64,000 bases of DNA. It comes from Candidatus Marinacidobacterales bacterium. GTDB taxonomy: Bacteria > Acidobacteriota > Vicinamibacteria > Marinacidobacterales > DATDRI01. Location: NCBI GenBank assembly GCA_965226495.1, contig OZ245365.1:1120001-1184000 (forward strand). Reading direction: 5' to 3'. Both the position numbers and the translations under genes were made by a program. The notes under the pieces were generated by a model. The model worked only from the letters and a program-made list of their open reading frames with translations. It was not told the DNA's origin and searched no databases. Below, piece by piece: positions 28 to 22,767 of this stretch. Each line of letters opens with the position of its first letter. Position 1 is the stretch's first letter.

Positions 28-183
28 AGTGGACGGTAATAATGAAATCGATACTGGACTTCATCGCCGCTATCCACGCGCCCCCCTCACCCGCCCGCCG
101 AAGGCGGGCGACCTCTCCCCCGGAGTCGGGGGAGAGGTAATAGAGGTGGTACCAACTTCGTTGGCACGGCCTATTAGCGGCGG
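28..183. repeat. ~155-bp palindromic intergenic repeat (family A), copy 1; REP/MITE-like
   Basis: Its reverse complement aligns nearly end to end with 22612-22767. Contains a CCCCTCACCC...CCTCTCCCCC/GGGGGAGAGG stem and GAA/TTC-loop hairpins (cgcc-GAA-ggcg; ccaac-TTC-gttgg). Confidence 0.9.
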
Positions 184-782
184 TTTCGATAGAGCTTCTC
201 GTCCACGGCGCTGGTCATCTTGTCCACGTCGAGATTCCCCAAGAATTCACTAATACGCTCGGCCTCGCGTCGCGGATTCGCCACGACGTCCTTGTAGTTC
301 ACTTCCAGCAGCTCGAAACAAGGACGATGTTTCATCAGGTAGTTCACTTTCCAGAGATGATTCTTGTAGACCTCTAACATCTCCTCGTCCGAGGTTTCGG
401 AAGCCTCAGCCCGATTCTTCAGCATTTTCGTTTGGGAGGCCAGAACCTCGTCCAGGTTACGGCGCATGAACACCACCTTGTAGTTGTTCGTCTCCGGGAG
501 ATCTTTTAACAAGAAAGAGATGATCTTGATCGTCTTTCCCCGGAACTCCTTGAGGTAGGACTTGTCCGGCTCTTTCTCCAGCTCCTTGACCCGTTCGTAC
601 TCGTAATACCCTTTGGGGTTGTCCTCGCCGGCCTTTCGGATTCCGTCGGTGGCGATGCTGAGCCCGGCGGCCTCCAGCATCTGCATGGTCATGGACGTCC
701 CGGAGCGGGGGAGGCCCGAGACGACAATCAGCGGCTCACCGAACCGGATTCTTCTATAAGTCCTGACTAAAGTGGATGTCAT
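174..782 (-). CDS. Sulfotransferase family protein (P-loop, PAPS-binding)
   Basis: 5'-PSB loop VVSGLPRSGTS, NPKGYYE, and a 3'-PB-like FMRRNLDEVLASQ; YKDVVANP...ISEFLG. Confidence 0.85.
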   Translation of the reverse strand: MTSTLVRTYRRIRFGEPLIVVSGLPRSGTSMTMQMLEAAGLSIATDGIRKAGEDNPKGYYEYERVKELEKEPDKSYLKEFRGKTIKIISFLLKDLPETNNYKVVFMRRNLDEVLASQTKMLKNRAEASETSDEEMLEVYKNHLWKVNYLMKHRPCFELLEVNYKDVVANPRREAERISEFLGNLDVDKMTSAVDEKLYRNRR

Positions 783-983
783 CCGTGGGCTCCCGACTCC
801 TCCCGGGTTTGGGGGCCGGCGTCAAAACCTAGTAAGATAACGCTCTAGAGCTTGAAATGCCAGCCGCTTCTCAATAAACTACGTGATTCTGGCCCGTTGC
901 CGCGGCGCAGACCAGCCAACCGCTTTCCCCGCATGCGGAAGAGCGGCCCAACTTGCGCCTTCTTGAAAGGAAGACATCCGTTG

Positions 984-3131
984 ATGCGATCTAGTTCGAT
1001 GGGGAAGAGGGTTTCGAGGGCCGCCCCAGTGGTGATTTTCCTGGCGGCCATTCTTGGCTCGGCGGAGCCGGCCTTCGCCTACATCGGCCCGGGCGCTGGC
1101 TTCGCGCTCCTATCCTCTTTCCTTGTTCTCTTTACCACCATTATCCTCGCGATTTTTTCCCTGCTCATTCTTCCTTTCCGTGCGCTCTTCCGGCTCATCT
1201 TGCGCAAGACGCGGCCGAAGCCGTGGATCAAACGTATGATCGTTGTGGGATTCGACGGGCAAGATCCTAAGATCACCGAGCGGCTCTTGAAGAAGGGAAA
1301 GCTTCCGAACTTCAAGCGCCTGGCCGAGATGGGAAGTTATAGCCGCCTCCGTACCACCTTTCCTTCGATCTCGCCGGTGGCCTGGTCTTCCTTCAGTACC
1401 GGCACCAATCCGGCGCGCCACAACATCTATGATTTTCTTGACCGTGATCTCCGGACGTATTTGCCGGTACTTTCTTCGACACACATCGGCGGGCTCGAGA
1501 AGTTCCTGAAGATCGGACGTTATCGGGTTCCCCTGCGCAAGCCGGAAGTCCGGCTGCTCCGCAAGTCCAAACCCTTCTGGTCGATCCTGGGCGAGTACAA
1601 CATCTGGAGCTCGATCATTCGGGTTCCGATTACCTTTCCCCCCGATCACTTTTACGGAGCGCAACTCAGTGCGATGTGTGTGCCGGACCTCTTGGGCACG
1701 CAAGGAACGTTTCAACTTTTCACGACTCGGCCCGCCACCGAAAAATTCAAGGAAGGTGGCATTCGGATATCTCTCACGCCAAACGGGGACCGATTCGAGA
1801 CCAAGTTCGAGGGGCCCGAGAATCTGTTCAGGGAAGACAACGCGAAGCTCCAGGTTCCGTTTACGATTGCTCTGGATCGAGCCGCAAATCGGGTGCGGGT
1901 TTCGATTGGCAGTGACGAGGTGGAGCTTCAGAAGGGGCATTTGAGCGACTGGGTCACGCTGACCTTCAAGGCCGCTCCGGGGATCAAGGTCTCGGGCATT
2001 TGCCGCATGATGGTGACCGAGATGGAGGAGTATTTTTCGCTCTACGTGACTCCCATCAACATCGATCCCGAAAAACCCGCCATGCCGATTTCCCACCCAT
2101 CGTACTACTCGACTTATCTTGCCAAGAAGATCGGTCCCTACTCAACGCTTGGGCTCGCGGAGGACACCTGGGCTCTCAATGAAGGCGTGACCGATGATGG
2201 CACGTTCCTCCAGCAGGCTTATGACATCGATGGTGAGCGCCAGGAGATGTTTTTCGCTGCGATGGATCGGCTTCGTCGTGGGAGCCTGGTCTGCGTCTTC
2301 GACGCGACGGATCGTATCCAGCACATGTTCTGGCACTATACCGAGGACGGACATCCCGCCACCCAAAATGGAAAAGCGGATCTAGTGGGCAAGTACCGCG
2401 ACACAATCGATGAGATCTATATCCATAACGACAAGCTGGTGGGCAAGGTGCTCGATCAACTCGAGGACGGAGACGTGCTCTTCGTGATCTCGGACCACGG
2501 CTTCAGTTCTTTCCGCCGAGGCGTGAACCTGAATGCCTGGCTACAGGCCAACGGCTATTTGACACTCAAAGACGGTGCCGACGGGTCAGCGGAGTGGCTG
2601 CGTGACGTCGATTGGTCGAAAACGAAAGCATACTGCCTCGGTCTCACTGGAATGTTTCTCAATGTGAAGAACCGAGAGGGACAGGGGATCGTCGAGCAAG
2701 GAGCGGAGGCGGAGGTGTTGAAGGCGGAGCTCATCTCCAAGCTCAACGGACTGAAGGACGACGAAAAGGGTGCGGTGGGAATCAATGAAGTCTTCGATAC
2801 CGCCAACGTATACGGCGGTCCTTATATCGGAAATGCCCCGGACCTGATCATCGGTTACAACGGCGGCTACCGAATTTCCTGGGACTGCGCCACCGGCATG
2901 GTCTCCGGACCTGTTTTCGAGGACAACACAAAAGCGTGGAGCGGCGATCACTGCATCGATCCACGGTTGGTCCCCGGCGTGCTGTTTTGCAATCGCGAGA
3001 TCGATTCCGAAGATCCGGCCCTCATCGATATCGCGCCGAGTGCGCTCCGGATGTTCGGTCTCGAGCCACCGAAACATATGGATGGCAAATCCTTGTTTAC
3101 CAAGGAAACGTTTCAAGGCGCGGGGAGCTGA
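984..3131 (+). CDS. Alkaline phosphatase superfamily (type I phosphodiesterase/NPP-like) protein with signal peptide, AYIGPGAG motif and TM anchor
   Basis: VVGFDGQD, TTFPSISPVAWSSFSTG (Ser nucleophile position), DRIQHMFW, VISDHGF, WSGDH. ATG 984 is preceded by GAAAGGAAG. Confidence 0.85.
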   Translation: MRSSSMGKRVSRAAPVVIFLAAILGSAEPAFAYIGPGAGFALLSSFLVLFTTIILAIFSLLILPFRALFRLILRKTRPKPWIKRMIVVGFDGQDPKITERLLKKGKLPNFKRLAEMGSYSRLRTTFPSISPVAWSSFSTGTNPARHNIYDFLDRDLRTYLPVLSSTHIGGLEKFLKIGRYRVPLRKPEVRLLRKSKPFWSILGEYNIWSSIIRVPITFPPDHFYGAQLSAMCVPDLLGTQGTFQLFTTRPATEKFKEGGIRISLTPNGDRFETKFEGPENLFREDNAKLQVPFTIALDRAANRVRVSIGSDEVELQKGHLSDWVTLTFKAAPGIKVSGICRMMVTEMEEYFSLYVTPINIDPEKPAMPISHPSYYSTYLAKKIGPYSTLGLAEDTWALNEGVTDDGTFLQQAYDIDGERQEMFFAAMDRLRRGSLVCVFDATDRIQHMFWHYTEDGHPATQNGKADLVGKYRDTIDEIYIHNDKLVGKVLDQLEDGDVLFVISDHGFSSFRRGVNLNAWLQANGYLTLKDGADGSAEWLRDVDWSKTKAYCLGLTGMFLNVKNREGQGIVEQGAEAEVLKAELISKLNGLKDDEKGAVGINEVFDTANVYGGPYIGNAPDLIIGYNGGYRISWDCATGMVSGPVFEDNTKAWSGDHCIDPRLVPGVLFCNREIDSEDPALIDIAPSALRMFGLEPPKHMDGKSLFTKETFQGAGS

Positions 3132-3133
3132 CG

Positions 3134-5122
3134 ATGGGCCCAACGCGAGCCATCGGCCTGGCTTTGGTGCTCGGTGTAAGCCTGGTAGGAGTCTCCTGCG
3201 GGAGCGACAAGACCAGTGAGCCGACCGGACCGCGGGTCATCATTCTGGGGTTCGACGGCATGGACCATGGGCTCGCCGCCAAGTTCATGTCGGAGGGAAA
3301 GCTCCCGAACCTCTCGCGCGTAGCCGAGCAGGGACATTTCTCTCCGCTAGCGACTTCCGTGCCACCGCAGAGCCCAGTGGCGTGGTCCAACTTCATCACC
3401 GGCATGGACTCGGGTGGCCACGGTATCTTCGATTTCGTACATCGGGATCCGGAAACGATGTTCCCCTTCCTATCGTCGGCCGAGACCCATGCCGGAGGGA
3501 CAACGATCAAGGTCGGGAAATGGCAGATCCCGCTTTCTGGTGGCTCCGTCGAGCTGCTGCGTCGAGGGAAGGCCTTCTGGGAGGTGCTCGAGGAAAACGG
3601 CGTGGAGACGACGATCATCCGGATGCCGGCGAACTACCCCCCGTCGGGGACCGCCACTCGTGAGCTGAGCGGCATGGGAACCGTCGACATCATCGGCTCG
3701 TACGGGACGTTTTCGTTCTATACCTCGGAGCTCTTCGCCTTCGCCGGTGAAGACATTTCCGGTGGGAAGGTCTACGAAGTCGATGTTTTCGACAGCGTCG
3801 TGGAGGCCGAACTCTACGGGCCCGACAATCCTTTTCTCGTGGAGCCGAAAAAAGTCACCTCGCCGTTTACCGCGTATCTCGATCCCGAAGAGTCGCTTGC
3901 CAAGATCGTCGTCGACACCGAAGAAGTCGTTCTCGCGGTAGGAGAGTGGAGCGACTGGGTGCCCATAGAATTCGATCTCATTCCGACTCAGAGTTTGCCC
4001 GGAATGGCCCGTTTCTATCTCAAACAGATAGAGCCCGACTTCGAGCTCTACGTCACTCCGATCAATCTCGATCCCTATGAGCCGGCGCAGCCCATCTCGA
4101 CACCCGCTTCTTATGCCGCGGAGGTGGCCGAAGCATCTGGTCGCTTCTACACCCAAGGAATGCCGGAGGACACCGCCGCCCTCATGGAGGACGTGTTCAC
4201 GCCCGAAGAGTTTCTAACTCAGTCCAAGATAGCGGGAGAAGAAAACGTCGAGCAGTACAAATGGGTGCTCGACCAATTCACGAACGGCCTCCTTTTCTAC
4301 TACTTCGGCAACGTGGATCAAATCAGTCACATGATGTGGCGGGGTCGAGACCCGGGACACCCGGCCTACGATGCGGATCAAGACGCCGGTTTTGCCGGCC
4401 TCATCGACGAGCTCTATCAGGGATTGGACCGAATTGTGGGCTATACGCTCGACAGAATGAACGAAGACGACCTGCTAGTCGTGATGTCGGACCATGGATT
4501 CACTTCGTGGCGGCGGTCCTTTCACTTGAACGCCTGGCTTCACCAGAATGGATTCCTCGCCGTACGGGATCCGAATATGGAAGACGACCCCGGGATTTTC
4601 GCCAACGTGGATTGGACGGGGACGCAGGCCTACGCGGTCGGCATCAATTCGTTGTATATCAATCTCCGCGGGCGTGAAAAGTGGGGAATCGTGAACCCTG
4701 TCGAGAGAGAAGCGATTATGGACGCGATCGCCGAGAAGCTTCTGGCGACCATTGATCCCGAGACCGGTGAGCAAGCCGTGACCAAAGTCTACAAACGAGA
4801 AGAGTTCTACAAGGACCGCGGCGAGCTCGAGATCGGTCCCGATTTAGTCATCGGTTACACCAAAGGAACCCGAGGCTCCAACGAGTCGGCATTGGGCGCG
4901 GTCGGCAAAGAGGTGTTTAGCGACAACACCAGCATTTGGAGCGGCGACCACGCTATGGACCACGAAGCGGTTCCCGGCGTTCTATTCGCGAGTCGTCCTC
5001 TAAAGAGAGATGCCACTCGATTACAAGACCTGGCAGCCGCAGTCCTAGCGGAATTCGGCATCGAGGGAGAGTTTCCCTCGCGAGTTGGCGAAGACGTGGA
5101 GGCCGGTAAGGGAGGAAGTTGA
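3134..5122 (+). CDS. Alkaline phosphatase superfamily (NPP-like) probable lipoprotein; paralog of the upstream gene
   Basis: N-terminus MGPTRAIGLALVLGVSLVGVS-C is lipobox-like; ILGFDGMD, PPQSPVAWSNFITG, DQISHMMW, MSDHGF, WSGDH. Confidence 0.85.
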   Translation: MGPTRAIGLALVLGVSLVGVSCGSDKTSEPTGPRVIILGFDGMDHGLAAKFMSEGKLPNLSRVAEQGHFSPLATSVPPQSPVAWSNFITGMDSGGHGIFDFVHRDPETMFPFLSSAETHAGGTTIKVGKWQIPLSGGSVELLRRGKAFWEVLEENGVETTIIRMPANYPPSGTATRELSGMGTVDIIGSYGTFSFYTSELFAFAGEDISGGKVYEVDVFDSVVEAELYGPDNPFLVEPKKVTSPFTAYLDPEESLAKIVVDTEEVVLAVGEWSDWVPIEFDLIPTQSLPGMARFYLKQIEPDFELYVTPINLDPYEPAQPISTPASYAAEVAEASGRFYTQGMPEDTAALMEDVFTPEEFLTQSKIAGEENVEQYKWVLDQFTNGLLFYYFGNVDQISHMMWRGRDPGHPAYDADQDAGFAGLIDELYQGLDRIVGYTLDRMNEDDLLVVMSDHGFTSWRRSFHLNAWLHQNGFLAVRDPNMEDDPGIFANVDWTGTQAYAVGINSLYINLRGREKWGIVNPVEREAIMDAIAEKLLATIDPETGEQAVTKVYKREEFYKDRGELEIGPDLVIGYTKGTRGSNESALGAVGKEVFSDNTSIWSGDHAMDHEAVPGVLFASRPLKRDATRLQDLAAAVLAEFGIEGEFPSRVGEDVEAGKGGS

Positions 5123-5316
5123 TGTTTGGGTCGACGAAAGTGAAGTTGGATACAGATTTGGTGGCCAAGGTCAAGAAGTATTCGGACATCGCCGGATACT
5201 CCTCGCCCGAGGAGTTCATCACCCATGCTCTCGAAAAAGAGCTGGCCAAGCTCGAGGACGCTGGCTCCGAAGAGGAGATCCGTAAAAGACTTCAGGGGTT
5301 GGGTTACATCTCCTAG
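5122..5316 (+). CDS. Small ribbon-helix-helix-like protein with C-terminal EEIRKRLQGLGY motif
   Basis: TGATG stop/start overlap with the upstream gene and a GGAGGA RBS. Strand-helix-helix pattern KVKLDTDLVAKVKK..GYSSPEEFITHALEKEL. Confidence 0.8.
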   Translation: MFGSTKVKLDTDLVAKVKKYSDIAGYSSPEEFITHALEKELAKLEDAGSEEEIRKRLQGLGYIS

Positions 5317-5334
5317 CCGCCGGTCGCGAATCGT

Positions 5335-6183
5335 ATGTCGTACATCAACGCTATATTGAGGCCTGTCTTCGAGCTTCTTCTTTCGCCCTTTAGCGGGCTT
5401 CCTGCCATCGTGGGGCTGGCGGTGGTGTCGCTGATCACGGCCATCGGGATGCTCCTAGTCTTCAAGAAGACTTCGAACCAGGATGCCATTGCGGCTGTGA
5501 AGCGGCGCATTCACGCCAACCTTTTCGAGATCCGCCTCTTTAACGACGATCTACGAGCCATACTGCGTTCGCAAACCGAGATCCTCCGTCACAACCTGAC
5601 CTATCTTCGCCTGTCCGCGGTTCCCATGTTGTGGACCTTGCCGCCATTGATCTTGATCATCGCTCAACTTCAATTTCACTACGGCTACGCTGGACTCGAT
5701 CCCACTAATCCGGTTCTCCTCAAAGTCGAGCTCCAAGACAGCGGGAACAACGCTTCGTGGGAAGAAGCGCCCCGGCCGGAGCTCACCCTGGCCGCTCCCT
5801 CCGGTATACGGATCGAGACACCTGGTCTGTGGATTCCTTCGCTTCGGGAAATGGATTGGCGAATAGTCGGTGAAGGGAGCGGGGACTACGTAGTCGAAGT
5901 GAAACTCGATGGTCAGTCTCACTCGAAAACGGTGCGAGTCTCGAACGACGTCGTGCTTCGATCGCCCTCGCGTTTGGAAAAGGGCTTCTTGAACCAACTC
6001 CTTTTTCCGGCCGAGCCCCCCCTACTGGCGGACAGTCCCATCAAATCGATCACCGTGAACTACCCGGAGGCGGCGGTGAATACTTTCGTTTTCGGATGGT
6101 CACTGCACTGGATGATCATCTACTTCGTGCTAGCCATCGCCTTCGCATTCGCCCTCAGGAACACGTTCAAAGTCCAGATGTAA
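5335..6183 (+). CDS. Membrane protein resembling DUF106/EMC3/TMCO1 (Oxa1 superfamily) with an inserted soluble beta domain
   Basis: Amphipathic N-helix, TM1 (IVGLAVVSLITAIGMLLVF), charged coiled-coil hairpin, TM2 (PMLWTLPPLILIIAQL), ~135-aa loop, TM3 (WMIIYFVLAIAFAFALR). Confidence 0.6.
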   Translation: MSYINAILRPVFELLLSPFSGLPAIVGLAVVSLITAIGMLLVFKKTSNQDAIAAVKRRIHANLFEIRLFNDDLRAILRSQTEILRHNLTYLRLSAVPMLWTLPPLILIIAQLQFHYGYAGLDPTNPVLLKVELQDSGNNASWEEAPRPELTLAAPSGIRIETPGLWIPSLREMDWRIVGEGSGDYVVEVKLDGQSHSKTVRVSNDVVLRSPSRLEKGFLNQLLFPAEPPLLADSPIKSITVNYPEAAVNTFVFGWSLHWMIIYFVLAIAFAFALRNTFKVQM

Positions 6184-6258
6184 CGGGTTTGCGGGTACGG
6201 GTCTTCGGGCGCATAATGTCTCTAAATCAGTAAAACGTGCGCTAGGAGGAGTTTGGCG

Positions 6259-7002
6259 ATGAGCCAGAAACTAAATGGGCTTGTCCTCGCTGCTTTTTTG
6301 ACGACCGGCCTCATCACCGGTGCGGTCGCGGTGGCCAAGGATAAGCCTCCCGTGGCGACAGGCGAGTTTCAGTTCCTGCTGGTGGGAAAACGTATCGGCG
6401 AGGAGCGGTTTCGGGTCTTCAAGGATAAGAAGGACTATCGCATCGAGTCCACCACGACCTTCTATTGGCCGAAGCCGAGCGCTCAACATTACGAGTGGAA
6501 GCTGGATCGATCTCTTCAGCCGGACAAGCTGGACCACGATCTAAGAGAAGGTGGCAAGGTGATCACCGTCGAGCTGAGGAAAAAAGGCAAGAACTGGCGG
6601 AGCGAGGTCAAAGGAAAAAACGTCAAGAAGGTCAAGGAAGACATGGGCCTGAGGCAGTCTGCGGAGATCGATTTCGGATCACCTTTGTTCCAGTGGATTA
6701 CTTTTCGACACCTCAAGCTTGCAGAAGGGGAAAAGAAAGACGTTGAAGTGATCGTGCTCGAAGCGCCGAAGCCGAAGGTGGCACGCATCGAGCGAACCTA
6801 CACCCGGCTACCGGACGAAGGGGTTCAAGCCGATGTGCAAGGCGAGGTTGTGGCCTCCATTTATGATGTGACCCAATCGGAATCCAGTTACCGGCTTTGG
6901 TTGGATCCAAGCGGCTTCCCTATCCGCACCGAGCGAGAAACACCCGACGGTCTGCTCGAGATTCGACTGGTCCGTTTCGATAAGCACCCGCGGGCCTGGT
7001 GA
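6259..7002 (+). CDS. Exported hypothetical beta-rich protein (DUF3108/DUF6134-like)
   Basis: Signal peptide ending AVA-VA; GKRIGEERF and LWLDPSGFPIR patterns; AGGAGGA RBS. Confidence 0.55.
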   Translation: MSQKLNGLVLAAFLTTGLITGAVAVAKDKPPVATGEFQFLLVGKRIGEERFRVFKDKKDYRIESTTTFYWPKPSAQHYEWKLDRSLQPDKLDHDLREGGKVITVELRKKGKNWRSEVKGKNVKKVKEDMGLRQSAEIDFGSPLFQWITFRHLKLAEGEKKDVEVIVLEAPKPKVARIERTYTRLPDEGVQADVQGEVVASIYDVTQSESSYRLWLDPSGFPIRTERETPDGLLEIRLVRFDKHPRAW

Positions 7003-7021
7003 GGGCGACGGCCGGTTCGAC

Positions 7022-8086
7022 TCACCCGGTCGAGGCCAGTTGGCAGCCTGAGTAGACTGGCCCTGGCTCGCGTGCACGGCTGTCGGAGCGCCGGAATCGC
7101 CCCATCACTTCCTTTCCGTACGTGCGTTCAGCCAGATATTGGTTGTGCGCTGGACACATCATTTGAACGTTGTCAGGGCTGTGGTCGCCGCCCAGGGCAA
7201 ATGCCTCGTCGTGGTGAAACTGCAGCGCATTGCGACTCCGGCACCGTCTGCCGCGTCCGTCCACAAAGGTACAACGGTTCCCGTCGCGCTCGCTGACCGT
7301 GCGCCGCACTGCGGCCGGGATGTAACGTGACGACGGCGATGTGTCGGTCTCTTCGACGCTCTTCCTAGGGGCTGTCGTCTTGCCGAAGCGCTTCGCCTCG
7401 AGTCTTTCGAGCTTCTCGCTCACGGCTTCTTCGATGATCGCAGCCAGGTCGCCGTCTGGAACCGATGAACGCATGAGCGCCTGGAGCCGCTCTAACTTGG
7501 CGTGGAACTCGGCGTTGGCCGTGAACTGGACCTTGTAACGGGCAGGCGCCAGGGGCTCGACCAAAGCGGGCTTGGTCTTCGCAGGAGCGGGTAACTCGAT
7601 CGCAACTTGGTCCGGACCGAGTTGCGAGGCTGCTTTCTTCGGTCGCTGGGGTAGCTTTCGCATCACGGTTGGAACATCCGGCTTCGGGGTGATTTCGATC
7701 ACCAACTCCTCGATCTCTCGTTTGGATCTATGCGCCGCACGAGCCAGAAGCGTTTCTCGATTGGCTTCGGTCAGGTGCAGAGCGAGCTTGGCGATGCCGC
7801 TTAAGTGAAGCCGGCCGTCACCCAGCATCGCGAGCAGCATCGGATGCTTCCGAGACGCACGACCCACTGCGATGCGCAAATAGGCCTCGTGCTCCGACAA
7901 GTGCAACTCCTCCGTGCAGTAGGCAAACATAGAGGAGAATGCCCCTCTCGCATAGAGCCGCCGCTCGTCTACCTCGGCAATATGTGCGACAAGCTCTGAC
8001 TCGATGCGTCGTGAGTTCTGCACCAGCCCTGTTAAGCGGCGGAGTAGCTCATCATCCGAAATTGATTTTAGTAACTTGCTAGACAT
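7022..8086 (-). CDS. DUF222-like domain plus C-terminal HNH endonuclease
   Basis: N-terminal LVAHIAEVDERRLY...FSSMFAYC..L.LSE.EAY.RI; C-terminal RDGNRCTF..RC....LQFHHDEAFALGG.HSPDNVQMMCPAHN. Confidence 0.85.
   Translation of the reverse strand: MSSKLLKSISDDELLRRLTGLVQNSRRIESELVAHIAEVDERRLYARGAFSSMFAYCTEELHLSEHEAYLRIAVGRASRKHPMLLAMLGDGRLHLSGIAKLALHLTEANRETLLARAAHRSKREIEELVIEITPKPDVPTVMRKLPQRPKKAASQLGPDQVAIELPAPAKTKPALVEPLAPARYKVQFTANAEFHAKLERLQALMRSSVPDGDLAAIIEEAVSEKLERLEAKRFGKTTAPRKSVEETDTSPSSRYIPAAVRRTVSERDGNRCTFVDGRGRRCRSRNALQFHHDEAFALGGDHSPDNVQMMCPAHNQYLAERTYGKEVMGRFRRSDSRAREPGPVYSGCQLASTG
7600..7627. repeat. 28-bp near-perfect palindrome inside the HNH gene; related copy at 8373-8392
   Basis: TCGCAACTTGGTCC-GGACCGAGTTGCGA has one mismatch between arms. 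7605-7624 matches 8373-8392 at 18/20. Confidence 0.8.
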
Positions 8087-8514
8087 GATTCGTCCCCCTC
8101 AAGAGTAATATAACAACGTACTTTTTTTGGCCTTGAGGCGACGTGAGCCGGTACGAATGTGCTTCGACGAAGTTTTTTGTCTCGAAGCTGCTAGGCGTTG
8201 ACTAGAACGTCATCGCAAGCTTTAGAGATGGCAGTTCGAAGGTGATCAATGAGATCGGAAATTCTGTTGTGAAATCTTGTCAAGAGAAAAGATCACTTTT
8301 CTTAGTTAGGAACGAGCCGCTTCAGCTCCTCGAACCAGTTAAGTAGGCTAGGGGCAGAGCGACATCATGGCCACTTGGTCTGGACCAAGTTGAGGAACTG
8401 GCGTCGGTCTTGTCTTCTCTCGACGCTCGACATGCTGCCTATCTACTCACCCGTGCTCTGGCCCCTGCCACATCGTTGAGCTATGTTGGCATTTGGGAGG
8501 GCAAGGAGAGCAGC

Positions 8515-9454
8515 ATGAAACGTTGTGCGGGTCTTACGCTTGGGCTTTTACTGTTTGCATTCGCGACATTTGCCGATAACGAGAAAGTGCCTTTGGATTC
8601 CGATCGTTGGGAAATCGAGGCCGAGGAATGGCGCATCGAGGAGCATCTCGGTGAGTCGAGTCTATTTTTGAAGGGTGGCGTTGCGGCCATCAAAGATTCG
8701 GTCTTCACGGACGGTATTATCGAGTTCGACATCGCGTTCCCGGAAGATCGGAACTTCGTGGGAGCCATGTGGCGTTTTCAGGGCGAGGAGAACTTCGAGG
8801 ACTTCTACATAAGGCCTCATCAGTCCGGTAATCCGGACGCGACTCAGTATACGCCGGTCTTCAATGGCATTTCCGGTTGGCAGCTCTATCACGGGGAAGG
8901 CTACGCCGCGCCGGTCGAGTATCGGTTCGACGAGTGGATTCACGTGAAGATTGTGATCTCCGGAAGCCAGGGCGAGATCTACATTGGTGAAGGGGGCGAG
9001 CCGGCTCTCGTGATGCACGAGCTCAAACGTCGGGTTGCGTCAGGTAAGGTGGGACTGAGAGCAGGAAATCGGGCCGTCACTCACTTCGCCAACTTCAGCT
9101 TCCAAGCCGTAGAGAATCCGTCCCTGAAGGGTCGCCCCAAGCACCCGGAACCGGCCCCCGAAGGCACCGTCATGGCCTGGTCTGTCTCGAGCTCGTTCGC
9201 CGAGAGCGATCTCGAAGGCGAATACGACCTCGCCGACCCGCAGACGTTATCTCAACGGTCGCTTGATCTTCGCGGGAACGGATCCTTACCGGTCACGCGA
9301 CTACCGCTTCTTGGGCTCGCTCGGGGATTTCGACGCATTGTATCTGCCACTCGAGGAGGGTGAGAACGAGCTTTGGATGGCGGTTACCGAGAGCTTTGGT
9401 GGCTGGGGAATCAAAGCCAGGTTCGATGACGTCGATGGGATCGAAATAGAATAG
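8515..9454 (+). pseudogene. Secreted DUF1080/ConA-like lectin-hydrolase domain protein, broken by an internal deletion/frameshift near 9246
   Basis: Signal peptide; FTDGIIEFDI, YIRPHQSGNPDATQYTP, WIHVKIVISG. The C-terminus YLNGRLIF...YRSRDYRFLG...ESFGGWG continues in another frame. Confidence 0.7.
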
Positions 9455-9462
9455 GGGGCGGT

Positions 9463-10992
9463 TCAGTTTCGAGAGCGCCAACTCGTGACGAAGACGCCGA
9501 CGAGGAAAATGGTCAGCGTTCCCACCACGATGATCATGTTCGCGTGGAAGGGGCTCCGGAGGTAGGACTCGTCTGGAAGATGTGGCGAGAACGTCATCCA
9601 GAAGATGACGAGCACTCCGGCGACAACCGCCGTGACCGCCGCTGGCCGATCGGCCCGACGAGAGATGAACCCCAGGAGGAACAGTCCGAGCACACCTCCG
9701 GCGAAAATGCCGGAGAGAGTCCACCAAGCATCAAGGAGACTCTTCACGCCGATCATCGCGAGCGCGACACCGACTCCCAACACGCCCATCACCACCGTAG
9801 CGGCGTAAAGGACACGCATCGCCTCTCGTTCGCTCACGGTGCGCTGAAGCCACCCTCGATAAAGATCGGACAGAATGACTGTCGCCGAGCTATTCAGGCT
9901 GGTGTCGATGCTGCTCATCGCTGCCGCTAGGAGAGCCGCGATCAGCAGACCCGCCAAACCGGGTGGGAGTTCTCGAGCGATGAAGTGAGGAAAGACACGG
10001 TCGCCGAGCCCCTCTTTAGTCAACTCTGTTAACTCTGCCGGTTCCTCGTTAAGCGTGTCGGACTGCGTCACGACCTCGTGCCGTAGTTGTTCTTTCAGAT
10101 CCGGGCGGGCCTCGTAGTAGGCGAAGAGGCCAGACCCAATAAGAAAGAACACCAAAGAGATCGGGACGTACAAGAGAGCGGCCAGCCACACCGCGCGAGC
10201 CGCCTCTCGATCGCTGCGTGCGGTGTGGTAGCGCTGCACGAAGCTCTGATCGATACCGAAATTGCTGAGGTTGATGAAGACTCCATAGAGGAGCACGACC
10301 CAGAATGTCGAGGTCGTGAAGTCGAAGGCCAAGCTACCGAGGCCGAACTTGCCTTCCCGCGAAGCGATCTCGAACAGTTGGCCAGGGCCTTCGGGCATAC
10401 CGAAAAGCAGCATCGCCACCACGAGCAGGGCACCGAGCGAGAGCACCAGGCTCTGTGCGACGTCGGTCCAGATGACGGCCTCGATCCCACCGAGAAGCGT
10501 GTAAAGCGTCACAAGCGCGCCGGTGGCCACGATAATCGTTTCGATCGACCACCCGGTGAGAGCCGCGACGGCGATTCCGCCGCCGAACAGGATCGCTCCC
10601 ATCCTGGCGAGTTGGGTCAGTAGGTAGCAGAGCATCGCGTAGACGCGAGCCCATCGCCCAAAGCGTCGTTCGAGATGCGTGTAGGCGGAGATTTCGCCGG
10701 TGTCTCGATAGAAGGGAACGAAATATTTCGTTGCGACCCATGCCGCGAACGGTAGAGATAGGCTGAAGACGAAGGAGTTCCAGTTCGAGGCATAGGCTTT
10801 CCCGGGAACTCCGAGAAACGTGTTGCTGCTGAGATAGGTTCCAAAAAGAGAAAGACCGACCGCCCAACCCGGCAAGGCCCCACCGGCAGCGGTAAATTCG
10901 TGCGCAGTCCGGCTGCGGCGGTAGAGCACACTTCCGAGCGTGACGATGCCGATGGTGTAGATTGCGAGAACGAGGAAGTCGAGAGTGGCCAT
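9463..10992 (-). CDS. Sodium:solute symporter (SSS family)
   Basis: About 13 TM helices; SAYTHLERRFG, YTLLGGIEAVIWTD, DQSFVQRY, AAAMSSIDTSLNS. Confidence 0.93.
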   Translation of the reverse strand: MATLDFLVLAIYTIGIVTLGSVLYRRSRTAHEFTAAGGALPGWAVGLSLFGTYLSSNTFLGVPGKAYASNWNSFVFSLSLPFAAWVATKYFVPFYRDTGEISAYTHLERRFGRWARVYAMLCYLLTQLARMGAILFGGGIAVAALTGWSIETIIVATGALVTLYTLLGGIEAVIWTDVAQSLVLSLGALLVVAMLLFGMPEGPGQLFEIASREGKFGLGSLAFDFTTSTFWVVLLYGVFINLSNFGIDQSFVQRYHTARSDREAARAVWLAALLYVPISLVFFLIGSGLFAYYEARPDLKEQLRHEVVTQSDTLNEEPAELTELTKEGLGDRVFPHFIARELPPGLAGLLIAALLAAAMSSIDTSLNSSATVILSDLYRGWLQRTVSEREAMRVLYAATVVMGVLGVGVALAMIGVKSLLDAWWTLSGIFAGGVLGLFLLGFISRRADRPAAVTAVVAGVLVIFWMTFSPHLPDESYLRSPFHANMIIVVGTLTIFLVGVFVTSWRSRN

Positions 10993-11005
10993 CTTTTTTA
11001 GTCAG

Positions 11006-11175: not shown

Positions 11176-11676
11176 ATGTCTACAGACACGCTCTGTGATC
11201 GCTACCGCAGCTGGTTCGATTACGAGGCCCGGGCCCATGAAAAGGTGCTGCGGTCGCTGCACTCCGTGCCCGCCTCTCATCGCGACGCGCCGGAGTTCCA
11301 AAAGGCTCTAGAACTGGTGGGACACATCGTCGCGGCGCGGTGGCTATGGCTCAATCGGTTCGGCGTCGTTGAGAGTGTCCCAACCCAGCTCTTTCCAGCG
11401 GATGTCGCTCTCGAGGAGTTGGACTCGCTCGTTGACGAGATGCATATCGTTTGGACTGCGTATCTCAGCCGTCTGGACTCGACGGAGCTCGAGAGAGAAT
11501 TCGAGTATCAGAGCATGGAGGGGCCGCGGTTTCGAAATACTATCGAGGATCTTCTGACGCAGCTCTTCGGCCACTCTTGGTATCATCGAGGGCAAATCGC
11601 CGCACTGGTCCGGTTGTTGGGAGGCAAGCCGGCCGGAACGGATTACGTGTTTTGGAGACGCCAGCGAATCGATTGA
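11176..11676 (+). CDS. DinB/YfiT family protein
   Basis: GHIVAARWLW and LFGHSWYHRGQIA His motifs; GGAGGGG RBS. Confidence 0.85.
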   Translation: MSTDTLCDRYRSWFDYEARAHEKVLRSLHSVPASHRDAPEFQKALELVGHIVAARWLWLNRFGVVESVPTQLFPADVALEELDSLVDEMHIVWTAYLSRLDSTELEREFEYQSMEGPRFRNTIEDLLTQLFGHSWYHRGQIAALVRLLGGKPAGTDYVFWRRQRID

Positions 11677-11686
11677 GGAGATGATG

Positions 11687-12778
11687 ATGGCAGAGTCGGA
11701 CCTTTCCAGTAAGCGAGACGCGTTCATCGAGCGACTGGTCGAATCGTTGAGGGGCACGTTCGATATCTTCAGCGCCTACATCGGCGTGAAGCTCGGTCTA
11801 TACGAGTCTCTCGCCGAGGCAGGGCCGTCGACTTCCGTCGAGCTTGCGTCTCGAACCTCCACGCACGAACGCTACATCCGCGAATGGCTGGAGCAACAGG
11901 CCGTCACAGGAATCCTCGATGTCGATGACGAGAAAGCGGCGGCAACTGCACGGCGGTTCAGTCTTCCGGAGGCACATGCCGAGGTTCTCGTCGATCGCGA
12001 GAGCTTGAACTACCTCGCGCCCCTTCCGCAGCTCTTGGTCGGCGCGGTTAGCCCACTAAGGCGATTGCTCGAAGCGTATCGCAAGGGCGGGGGAGTGCCG
12101 TATGCGGACTACGGCGACGATATGGTGAAGGGGCAGGAAGGCATCAACCGCACGATGTTCCTGCAGGAACTCGGTAAAGTTTGGTTACCTGCCATCACCG
12201 ACCTCCACCAGCGCTTGGAATCAGACCCCCCGGGGCGGGTCGCCGATGTCGGTTGCGGTACCGGGTGGTCCGCGATCGGCATTGCGCAAAGTTATCCGAA
12301 GGTACGGGTGGACGGGTTCGACCTGGACGAGGCATCGGTCGAAATCGCTCGTGCCAACGGGCGGGAGGCGGGTCTCTCCGATCGCGTGCAGTTTCATGTC
12401 CGCGATGCCGCGGATCCACATCTCGCCGGTCGCTACGACTTGGTGACCGCTTTCGAGTGCATCCATGACATGTCTCGACCGGTGGAGGGTCTCAAGGCGA
12501 TGCGCAGTCTCGCTGGAGACGACGGGACGGTTTTGGTCGTCGACGAACGGGTCGGGGAAGAATTCTCTACAAAGGATAATGGGATCGACTGGATGATGTA
12601 CGGCTGGAGCATTTTTCACTGCCTTCCGGTTGGAAAAGTGGATGAGCCATCCGCCGAGACCGGGACGGTCATGCGCCCACCGGTTTTCAGGCGTTATGCC
12701 GAGGAGGCCGGTTTTAAGAGTGTAGAAATCTTGCCGATCGAGAGTCTTTTCTTTCGATTCTATCGTCTCGTTCCGTAA
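11687..12778 (+). CDS. Class I SAM-dependent methyltransferase with N-terminal winged helix (Rv2258c-like)
   Basis: ERYIREWLEQQA, VADVGCGTGW, YDLVTAFECIHDM, WSIFHCLP. Confidence 0.88.
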   Translation: MAESDLSSKRDAFIERLVESLRGTFDIFSAYIGVKLGLYESLAEAGPSTSVELASRTSTHERYIREWLEQQAVTGILDVDDEKAAATARRFSLPEAHAEVLVDRESLNYLAPLPQLLVGAVSPLRRLLEAYRKGGGVPYADYGDDMVKGQEGINRTMFLQELGKVWLPAITDLHQRLESDPPGRVADVGCGTGWSAIGIAQSYPKVRVDGFDLDEASVEIARANGREAGLSDRVQFHVRDAADPHLAGRYDLVTAFECIHDMSRPVEGLKAMRSLAGDDGTVLVVDERVGEEFSTKDNGIDWMMYGWSIFHCLPVGKVDEPSAETGTVMRPPVFRRYAEEAGFKSVEILPIESLFFRFYRLVP

Positions 12779-22611: not shown

Positions 22612-22767
22612 CCGCCGACCAGTAGGCTGTACCAACGAAGTTGGTACCACCTCTATCACCTCTCCCCCGAAAGCGGGGGAGAGGTCGTCCGCCGAAGGCG
22701 GGCGGGTGAGGGGGTGCGTTGATAGTGGCGATGAAGTCCACTATCGATTTCATTGCTACAGTCCACT
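22612..22767. repeat. ~155-bp palindromic intergenic repeat (family A), copy 2, inverted relative to copy 1
   Basis: Aligns to the reverse complement of 28-183 along the whole length, with scattered substitutions. Confidence 0.9.

Follow-up and report, generated by a model that had tools for sequence, protein, structure and literature searches.

What could call for two enzymes of one superfamily on opposite faces of the same membrane, encoded together with a YidC-like protein and a very small soluble one? The question is raised by a locus at the start of the 64,000-nucleotide stretch that we analysed (the window; contig OZ245365.1, positions 1,120,001 to 1,184,000, forward strand) from a Candidatus Marinacidobacterales bacterium (Acidobacteriota), whose genome (G000) is a single contig of 6.34 Mb. 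Here a sulfotransferase gene is divergent from a four-gene operon, which begins with the alkaline phosphatase (AlkP) superfamily gene alkpA and continues with its paralog alkpB, a mini-protein gene (mini) and a gene for a membrane protein of the Oxa1 superfamily; a first-pass annotation of the window had joined the five into a candidate system for group transfer across the membrane. From the gene set and its conservation, the topology signals, the folds and the intact catalytic motifs described below we infer, tentatively and at somewhat short of even confidence, that the two AlkP enzymes share a membrane-bound phosphodiester substrate, handled in both leaflets, that the YidC-like protein provides a trans-bilayer step and/or inserts the anchor of AlkpA, and that Mini serves as a regulator or adaptor.

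All five genes were confirmed as open reading frames (ORFs), the longest ORF of alkpA beginning at 852, ahead of its ATG (Table 1). The tight spacing described in the first-pass annotation is present in the sequence: alkpA and alkpB are separated by 2 nt (TGA 3129-3131, ATG 3134), alkpB and mini overlap in a TGATG (5120-5124), and 18 nt lie between mini and the membrane-protein gene (TAG 5314-5316, ATG 5335). The motifs that it had listed (AYIGPGAG, RALFRLILRKTRPKPWIKR, SPVAWS.F.TG and WSGDH) are likewise all found in the translations.

Table 1. The five genes and the promoter region of the locus, in window coordinates
Feature	Coordinates	Strand	Length	Assignment
sulfotransferase	174-782	(-)	202 aa	PF13469/PF00685
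divergent promoter region	783-998			between sulfotransferase and alkpA
alkpA	999-3131	(+)	710 aa from ATG at 999	PF01663, NPP-type AlkP
alkpB	3134-5122	(+)	662 aa	PF01663, exported lipoprotein paralog
mini	5122-5316	(+)	64 aa	ribbon-helix-helix-like, soluble
membrane protein	5335-6183	(+)	282 aa	DUF106/Ylp1-type Oxa1 superfamily

The gene set is not peculiar to this genome. A scan with an alignment of Mini as the query and one genome per species identified 410 loci, and we examined the best 80, found in Acidobacteriota classes and in bins labelled Gammaproteobacteria, Gemmatimonadota, Myxococcota, Methylomirabilota, Schekmanbacteria and Akkermansiaceae (here and below, motifs, lipoboxes and arrangements were tallied by eye from printed rows, and the relatives counted are not independent of one another). 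The five-gene set was complete in 48 of these 80 loci, a four-gene set without alkpB was present in 14, and contig ends interrupted the set in 16; this left two exceptions with full flanks, L101, where no sulfotransferase lies within 10 kb, and L071, where just the sulfotransferase and mini of the set are present. The latter locus (genome G061, a bin labelled Schekmanbacteria) also carries genes for a family 2 glycosyltransferase (GT2), a GDPD-family phosphodiesterase, a bPH protein and an epimerase beside that pair (6333-11004). The same five-gene order was found in 18 of 18 widened loci of relatives, including L013, where the sulfotransferase is 2.8 kb off, and L027, where the AlkP genes are fragmented. 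Split AlkP frames of this kind, seen in L027/L069, L096 and L084 (in L096 the sulfotransferase and membrane-protein genes are split as well), could reflect decay or assembly error. Neighbours outside the set vary among the 80 loci.

Co-occurrence of the genes had been set beforehand as the test on which the first-pass proposal could fail, and the genes do co-occur, across loci and across sampled genomes. In a sample of 201 genomes from the phylum (completeness 85% or more; the unpublished G111 is included, and no conclusion depends on it alone), the membrane-protein gene was present in 59, with mini upstream on the same contig in all 59 (the widest gap seen was 1.2 kb). A DNA pattern for the anchor motif of AlkpA matched 57 of these 59 genomes versus 4 of the other 142, while a reversed-pattern control matched 12 of the 201. 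Because the same order recurs across phyla the arrangement is far beyond chance, and we regard the gene set as a widely shared, horizontally spread and self-contained envelope module of bacteria. We found no published description of it; as most subscription journals and supplements were outside the coverage of our search, this is no proof that the set is undescribed.

The first enzyme, AlkpA, matches PF01663 (E-value 3.5e-29, 102.9 bits versus a gathering cut-off of 23) and has an unusual N-terminus composed of a positive N-region, a variable hydrophobic stretch with an AxA-type end, the motif Y[IVM]GPGAG, one transmembrane (TM) helix and an Arg/Lys cluster. The first-pass annotation had read these elements (signal peptide, AYIGPGAG, TM helix and the basic stretch RALFRLILRKTRPKPWIKR) as an anchor that leaves the enzyme in the cytoplasm, and the layout recurs in 64 of 64 orthologs listed, with Y[IVM]GPGAG invariant; within G000 the motif is unique to AlkpA. 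Applied to this anchor, the positive-inside rule gives a very short periplasmic end and a catalytic domain predicted to face the cytoplasm near the membrane, its first catalytic strand lying only ~20 residues past the basic cluster. In addition, G061, in which a family-alignment search of the genome found no membrane-protein gene, encodes an anchor-less soluble AlkP of the same clade, so this type of enzyme works in the cytoplasm. In the mechanism we propose, a procoat-like anchor would keep AlkpA within about 20 residues of the inner face.

An AlphaFold2 model of AlkpA (mean predicted local distance difference test score, pLDDT, 84.4) gave its best VIA fold matches to members of the nucleotide pyrophosphatase/phosphodiesterase (NPP) type: NPP7 (Z 27.6), NPP4 (27.4), NPP6 (27.4), Xac NPP (27.3) and PhnA (25.6), with sulfatases lower, and the AlkP core fold was also matched to SPAP by Foldseek (2.4e-11). 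With Xac NPP, ENPP4/6/7, PhnA and PafA/SPAP the protein shares PF01663, a fold similarity of Z 25-28 over ~350 residues, the Ser/Thr nucleophile position and the Asp/His motifs; it differs from the known NPPs in its identity to them (9-17%), in its unique anchor and cytoplasmic face, and in a conserved, beta-rich insert of ~220 residues (roughly 145-365) that distinguishes the clade. The Ser named as nucleophile in the first-pass annotation is residue 125; among 39 aligned orthologs 31 have S there and 8 have T, and it aligns with a position that differs (T versus A) between two PhnA entries in the Protein Data Bank (PDB). Also invariant among the orthologs are D86, D435, D438, H442, D499, H500, D650 and H651, which we take to be the metal sites by analogy with known motifs, not by superposition. 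On its sequence AlkpA is a catalytically intact NPP-type enzyme with a Ser/Thr nucleophile and a predicted phosphodiesterase or phosphotransferase activity.

AlkpB scored almost identically against PF01663 (4.3e-29, 102.6 bits versus 23) and carries a lipobox Cys that was found in 51 of 52 orthologs. It had been called a close paralog of AlkpA; the paralogy stands, both belonging to one PF01663 clade, but the closeness amounts to 39% identity only. A FastTree phylogeny of 116 sequences parted the A and B proteins by a single branch with Shimodaira-Hasegawa (SH)-like support of 100, the B proteins forming one clade, and we conclude from this that the duplication is old and that both copies have been kept. 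Genomes with the four-gene set are not truly without B, since in each of the five tested a B-like paralog is encoded elsewhere in the genome, unlinked to the operon and with both a twin-arginine (Tat) signal and a lipobox. The reverse case is found in G120 and G179, where the only AlkP of the operon is of the Tat-signal type and the anchored AlkpA is encoded at another locus. The pair thus persists even where it is unlinked, and the opposite topologies proposed for the paralogs are matched by opposite signals in every genome tested; unlike the known NPPs, the pair always comprises one inside and one outside copy. AlkpB would then be an enzyme of the same kind as AlkpA, exported and lipid-anchored on the outer face, and each of the two may handle, on its own leaflet, a membrane-bound substrate that is a lipid or a lipid-linked phosphodiester.

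The last gene of the operon had been labelled DUF106/EMC3-like, and both profile and fold comparisons agree with this. An AlphaFold2 model (pLDDT 94.4, predicted template-modelling score 0.86; helices at 24-46, 49-68, 73-116 and 259-274) begins with an amphipathic helix and TM1; a basic, well-conserved helical hairpin on the cytoplasmic side then leads into TM2, which is followed by a beta-sandwich and TM3. The sandwich corresponds to a predicted periplasmic immunoglobulin (Ig)-like domain of ~125 residues between TM2 and TM3. The best VIA fold among 48,161 representatives was 7tut_8 (Z 12.6, root-mean-square deviation 3.8 over 136 residues), the next row scoring 8.2, YidC (3wo7_A) 7.6 and EMC3 (6ww7_C) 7.3; 7tut is a multipass-translocon entry, and we take its chain 8 to be TMCO1. 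The family numbers 2189 representative clusters at E≤1e-3, and its profile matched the archaeal DUF106 protein MJ0480 (5c8j) with an E-value of 9.6e-12. The Pfam family PF01956 (EMC3_TMCO1) was matched by 4 of 45 relatives (best 4.8e-8); as the protein of the window itself is below the gathering cut-off (12.8 bits versus 27.1, E-value 0.11), its place in this branch rests on profile and fold. Foldseek against the PDB gave no match at E≤1e-3 and aligned the insert with Ig-like folds only (E > 2e-3), the helical core being recovered only through VIA and the profile. By its profile and its model this is a bacterial protein related to archaeal YidC/DUF106, with three predicted TM helices.

With Ylp1/MJ0480, TMCO1 and EMC3 it has in common the three TM helices and the cytoplasmic hairpin; it differs from them in being bacterial, in bearing the Ig-like domain at TM2-TM3, the hypervariable site of the superfamily, and in sitting in an enzyme operon while a canonical YidC is encoded elsewhere in the genome. 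In the part of PMC5868721 available to us DUF106 is described as archaeal and eukaryotic, and the accessible portion of 10.1101/2020.12.20.422553 assigns archaeal and bacterial YidC to two distinct monophyletic groups and places a bacterial-specific YidC hairpin at the position where our protein has its Ig-like domain. There appears, then, to be a large bacterial branch of DUF106/Ylp1-type Oxa1 proteins, a type otherwise described, as far as those excerpts go, as archaeal or eukaryotic. Since G000 also encodes the canonical YidC, the DUF106-like protein is an extra, specialised copy. In the mechanism we favour its hydrophilic groove would provide the trans-bilayer step, as a scramblase or conduit, and/or it would insert and hold the anchor of AlkpA; YidC itself is called both an insertase and a lipid scramblase in the text that was available of PMC11997395.

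Insertion might be all that it does. The protein would then insert or hold the hairpin anchor of AlkpA, and AlkpA and AlkpB would be independent hydrolases (e.g., for phosphodiester turnover or scavenging) with nothing passed between them. An anchor made of a signal peptide, a very short translocated loop and a TM helix resembles the substrates of YidC-type insertases. The uniqueness of the anchor motif to AlkpA in G000, the tracking of anchor and membrane-protein gene across the sampled genomes and the anchor-less AlkP of G061, which lacks that gene, all fit this explanation. However, G000 already has a canonical YidC, and insertion accounts for neither the Ig-like domain nor the strict retention of an exported paralog nor the position of mini; we consider it unlikely that this is the whole of the matter.

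A transfer reading gives the membrane protein more to do. Three-part envelope modification, with a cytoplasmic enzyme, a small membrane conduit and a periplasmic enzyme, is known from Gtr-type glucosylation, Arn and Dlt. In those systems, as in ours, enzymes for the two sides are encoded along with a membrane protein, and the mechanism we favour would follow the same plan. The likeness is one of logic only; the two enzymes are here paralogs from one AlkP clade and the conduit would belong to the Oxa1 superfamily, not to GtrA, MBOAT or GT-C. By this scheme bacteria have recruited an archaeal-type YidC relative as a conduit, not as a general insertase: the inside AlkP loads a phospho-linked group (sulfated in many lineages) onto a membrane carrier, the DUF106-like protein takes it across and the outside AlkP delivers it to an envelope acceptor. 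We think it a little less probable than insertion on its own; if true, it would represent a fourth inside/conduit/outside solution beside Gtr, Arn and Dlt.

Mini is acidic, with no hydrophobic segment or TM helix and no signal peptide, and is laid out as a ribbon-helix-helix (RHH)-like domain followed by an acidic linker and, at the C-terminus, an L.GLGY[IM]S that does not vary. Its identity is 75-95% across phyla among the top loci and 34-42% in divergent families, in which KVK[LI], GYSS.EE and L.GLGY[IM]S are still kept; G25, Y26, E31, E40, L57, G59, L60, G61 and Y62 do not vary among 32 sequences with identities as low as 34%. At threshold Mini matched no family of Pfam or NCBIfam (PF07704 gave an E-value of 0.022, with 16.1 bits versus a cut-off of 28.3). 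Its profile aligned weakly with the RHH domain of NikR (E-value 0.08), GYSS being common to both, and weakly with MazE4 (0.32), and Atlas clusters of Mini are named 'putative CopG family transcriptional regulator' (score 0.98). Mini looks like an RHH protein: it appears to share with CopG/NikR/MazE/VapB-type RHH proteins the strand-helix-helix pattern, the GYSS turn and, as in antitoxins, a tail beyond the fold, and differs from such regulators in having no Pfam family at threshold, no operator that we could find, its high identity across phyla and its invariant C-terminal end. Fusions of Mini were seen in 3 of 20 matches, each a single sequence and all to AlkP proteins; the likeliest explanation is read-through of the TGATG overlap. 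Most probably Mini would be an RHH regulator of the module whose conserved C-terminal tail docks onto a partner, much as RHH antitoxins grip their partners by C-terminal tails.

Such docking is central to a second alternative, in which the membrane protein senses the periplasm through its Ig-like domain, holds or releases Mini by its tail and so controls the AlkP genes. The upstream position of mini in 59 of 59 genomes with the membrane-protein gene is consistent with this, as are the antitoxin-like order of RHH domain, acidic linker and invariant tail (the MazE4 and PF07704 matches being weak) and the basic, well-conserved cytoplasmic hairpin, yet mini occurs without the membrane-protein gene in G061, and the promoter regions searched yielded no operator. 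The best exact k-mer was present in 10 of 61 regions, not above background, and dyads and direct repeats in 40 non-redundant regions were no more frequent than in shuffles, an absence that does not exclude an operator. A signalling pair seems to us improbable.

The sulfotransferase matched PF13469 (5e-14, 53.5 bits versus 27) and PF00685 (8e-11, 42.3 bits versus 22) and has neither a signal peptide nor a TM helix. Across 65 sequences VSGLPRSGTSM, R108 and EVLASQ vary little or not at all, and we presume these regions to be the 5'-phosphosulfate-binding (5'-PSB) and 3'-phosphate-binding (3'-PB) motifs; the best PDB match was to TPST2 (0.015), over the P-loop only. Of the 59 genomes with the core genes, 41 have an ortholog (E≤1e-20): it is divergent and upstream of the operon in 15, directly downstream in the same operon in eight (one of them G111), upstream and co-directional in one and elsewhere in the genome in 17, and it was not found in the remaining 18. 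All five genomes of two divergent families likewise have the operon without a nearby sulfotransferase, with only P-loop-level matches elsewhere. We conclude that the sulfotransferase is a real but dispensable companion; the universal core consists of alkpA, alkpB, mini and the membrane-protein gene. The P-loop sulfotransferase of the first-pass annotation thus holds as an enzyme of the type that uses 3'-phosphoadenosine 5'-phosphosulfate (PAPS), and PAPS/PAP genes do adjoin the set in some lineages (a bifunctional PAPS synthase in 17 and a CysQ-like phosphatase in 10 of the 80 loci; the PAPS synthase of the source genome is 390 kb from the set), but it does not hold as a member of the core. 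In most lineages this cytoplasmic, presumably PAPS-dependent enzyme would sulfate the substrate of the AlkP pair or a related acceptor. The neighbours of the unlinked sulfotransferases had no common theme. In L127 a 916-residue canonical PF01663 protein (3661-6411 (+), 1.1e-90) is encoded ~1.6 kb from an operon-unlinked sulfotransferase, which may be a coincidence.

The sulfotransferase has a direct part in a third alternative, phosphorus-sparing lipid remodelling, in which the AlkP enzymes remove phospho-head groups from the membrane lipids of both leaflets, the YidC-like protein evens out the leaflets and the sulfotransferase builds an anionic sulfolipid substitute. AlkP enzymes at both faces of the membrane, NPP7 and NPP6 among the top fold matches and the adjacent PAPS synthase and CysQ-like genes of some lineages would suit such a pathway. 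It is at odds with the 18 of 59 genomes that lack the sulfotransferase; furthermore, no acyl- or glycosyl-transferase is conserved within the set and no Pho-box-like direct repeat was present in the promoter regions searched, and we rate it slightly below the signalling pair.

More doubtful still is the scheme of the first-pass annotation, a relay that takes a sulfo or phospho group from PAPS by way of the inside AlkP to a Tyr of Mini, acting as a DltX-like carrier with the membrane protein, and on to the outside AlkP and an envelope acceptor. The parts of it that stood are the opposite topologies, the conserved membrane partner and the co-occurrence of the genes, and the invariant C-terminal Tyr of Mini and the P-loop of the sulfotransferase, which weakly resembles that of protein-tyrosine sulfotransferase, also speak for it; group transfer across the membrane is suggested by the anatomy of the gene set. 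The sulfo relay cannot be the core function, as the sulfotransferase is outside the universal core. Nor does the Tyr carrier survive: Mini is RHH-like and has no TM helix or signal, Y26 is probably a residue of the fold, as it is in the GYSS loop common to the NikR RHH domain, and both Tyr residues stay invariant in lineages without the sulfotransferase. According to the portion of PMC6637879 that we could consult, RaxX is a 60-residue sulfated precursor. As with RaxST/RaxX, a small protein with conserved Tyr here adjoins a sulfotransferase; unlike RaxX and DltX-type carriers, Mini looks folded and RHH-like, is not a variable precursor, has neither secretion signal nor TM helix, and keeps its Tyr where there is no sulfotransferase. 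The relay in its original form is therefore very unlikely. That the neighbourhood is fortuitous or an annotation artefact with no common function is next to impossible, given an order kept across phyla and genes that co-occur at the genome level.

Several observations weigh against our preferred reading, that of a membrane-bound phosphodiester handled on both leaflets. All topology assignments, the orientation of AlkpA and the cleavage of its signal peptide included, rest on sequence rules alone. The lipid-acting NPP7 and NPP6 are tied in fold score with the nucleotide-acting NPPs, so the fold gives no sign of a lipid substrate, and the neighbourhoods examined have no conserved gene for a substrate, for lipid synthesis or for a carrier. 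For Mini as a regulator, no conserved operator was identified in either 61 or 40 non-redundant promoter regions, though its presumed DNA-facing KVK strand is conserved, and in L071 mini occurs with the sulfotransferase and a GT2 gene and with no AlkP or membrane-protein genes nearby. Finally, the co-occurrence of anchor and membrane-protein gene is mostly one cassette counted twice, separate evidence coming only from the f50 lineage and G061.

Whichever role proves correct, paralogous enzymes strictly kept on opposite faces of one membrane are a rare and informative anatomy for envelope biochemistry, and a bacterial DUF106 branch tied to enzymes and present beside a normal YidC is a test case for what the minimal Oxa1 core can do beyond general insertion. 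The hosts belong to abundant, mostly uncultured soil and sediment phyla with poorly known envelopes; a sulfated envelope component in these phyla, if true, would bear on sulfur and phosphorus cycling.

As to the locus itself, a promoter block TTGAAA-N17-TAAACT in the divergent region is kept within the family. RNA coverage was limited to two short contigs of one metatranscriptome, both inside alkpA; that the other operon genes were uncovered proves nothing about their expression. None of the five proteins matched a family in the PADLOC defence models (E≤0.1), and tRNA and Rfam searches of the window gave no matches. Immediately 3' of the stop codon of the sulfotransferase is a dispersed repeat of ~150 bp (25-177), with another copy at ~22612-22767 (-) and 26 matches in the genome at 76-91% identity; it looks like a miniature inverted-repeat transposable element (MITE), and the DNA-run contig depth is high over positions 1-237 of the window. 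Directly 3' of the operon (6253-7002 (+)) a secreted PF06475 'putative glycolipid-binding' protein is encoded (1.3e-10), a weak hint at a lipid as the product; this gene is retained downstream of the operon only in close relatives. It is followed at 7022-8086 (-) by a gene for a 354-residue protein with a weak HNH match (0.006) and a faint match to an IscB model, which recurs close to the set in a few relatives. An ankyrin-repeat gene just upstream of the window (11300-12019 of the source-genome locus L111) is a neighbour of the sulfotransferase in 6 of the 80 loci, those of this genus and of a few relatives, and in one lineage the operon faces a convergent polyphosphate kinase 2 gene (7 of the 80 loci, e.g., L036, L038, L080 and L081).

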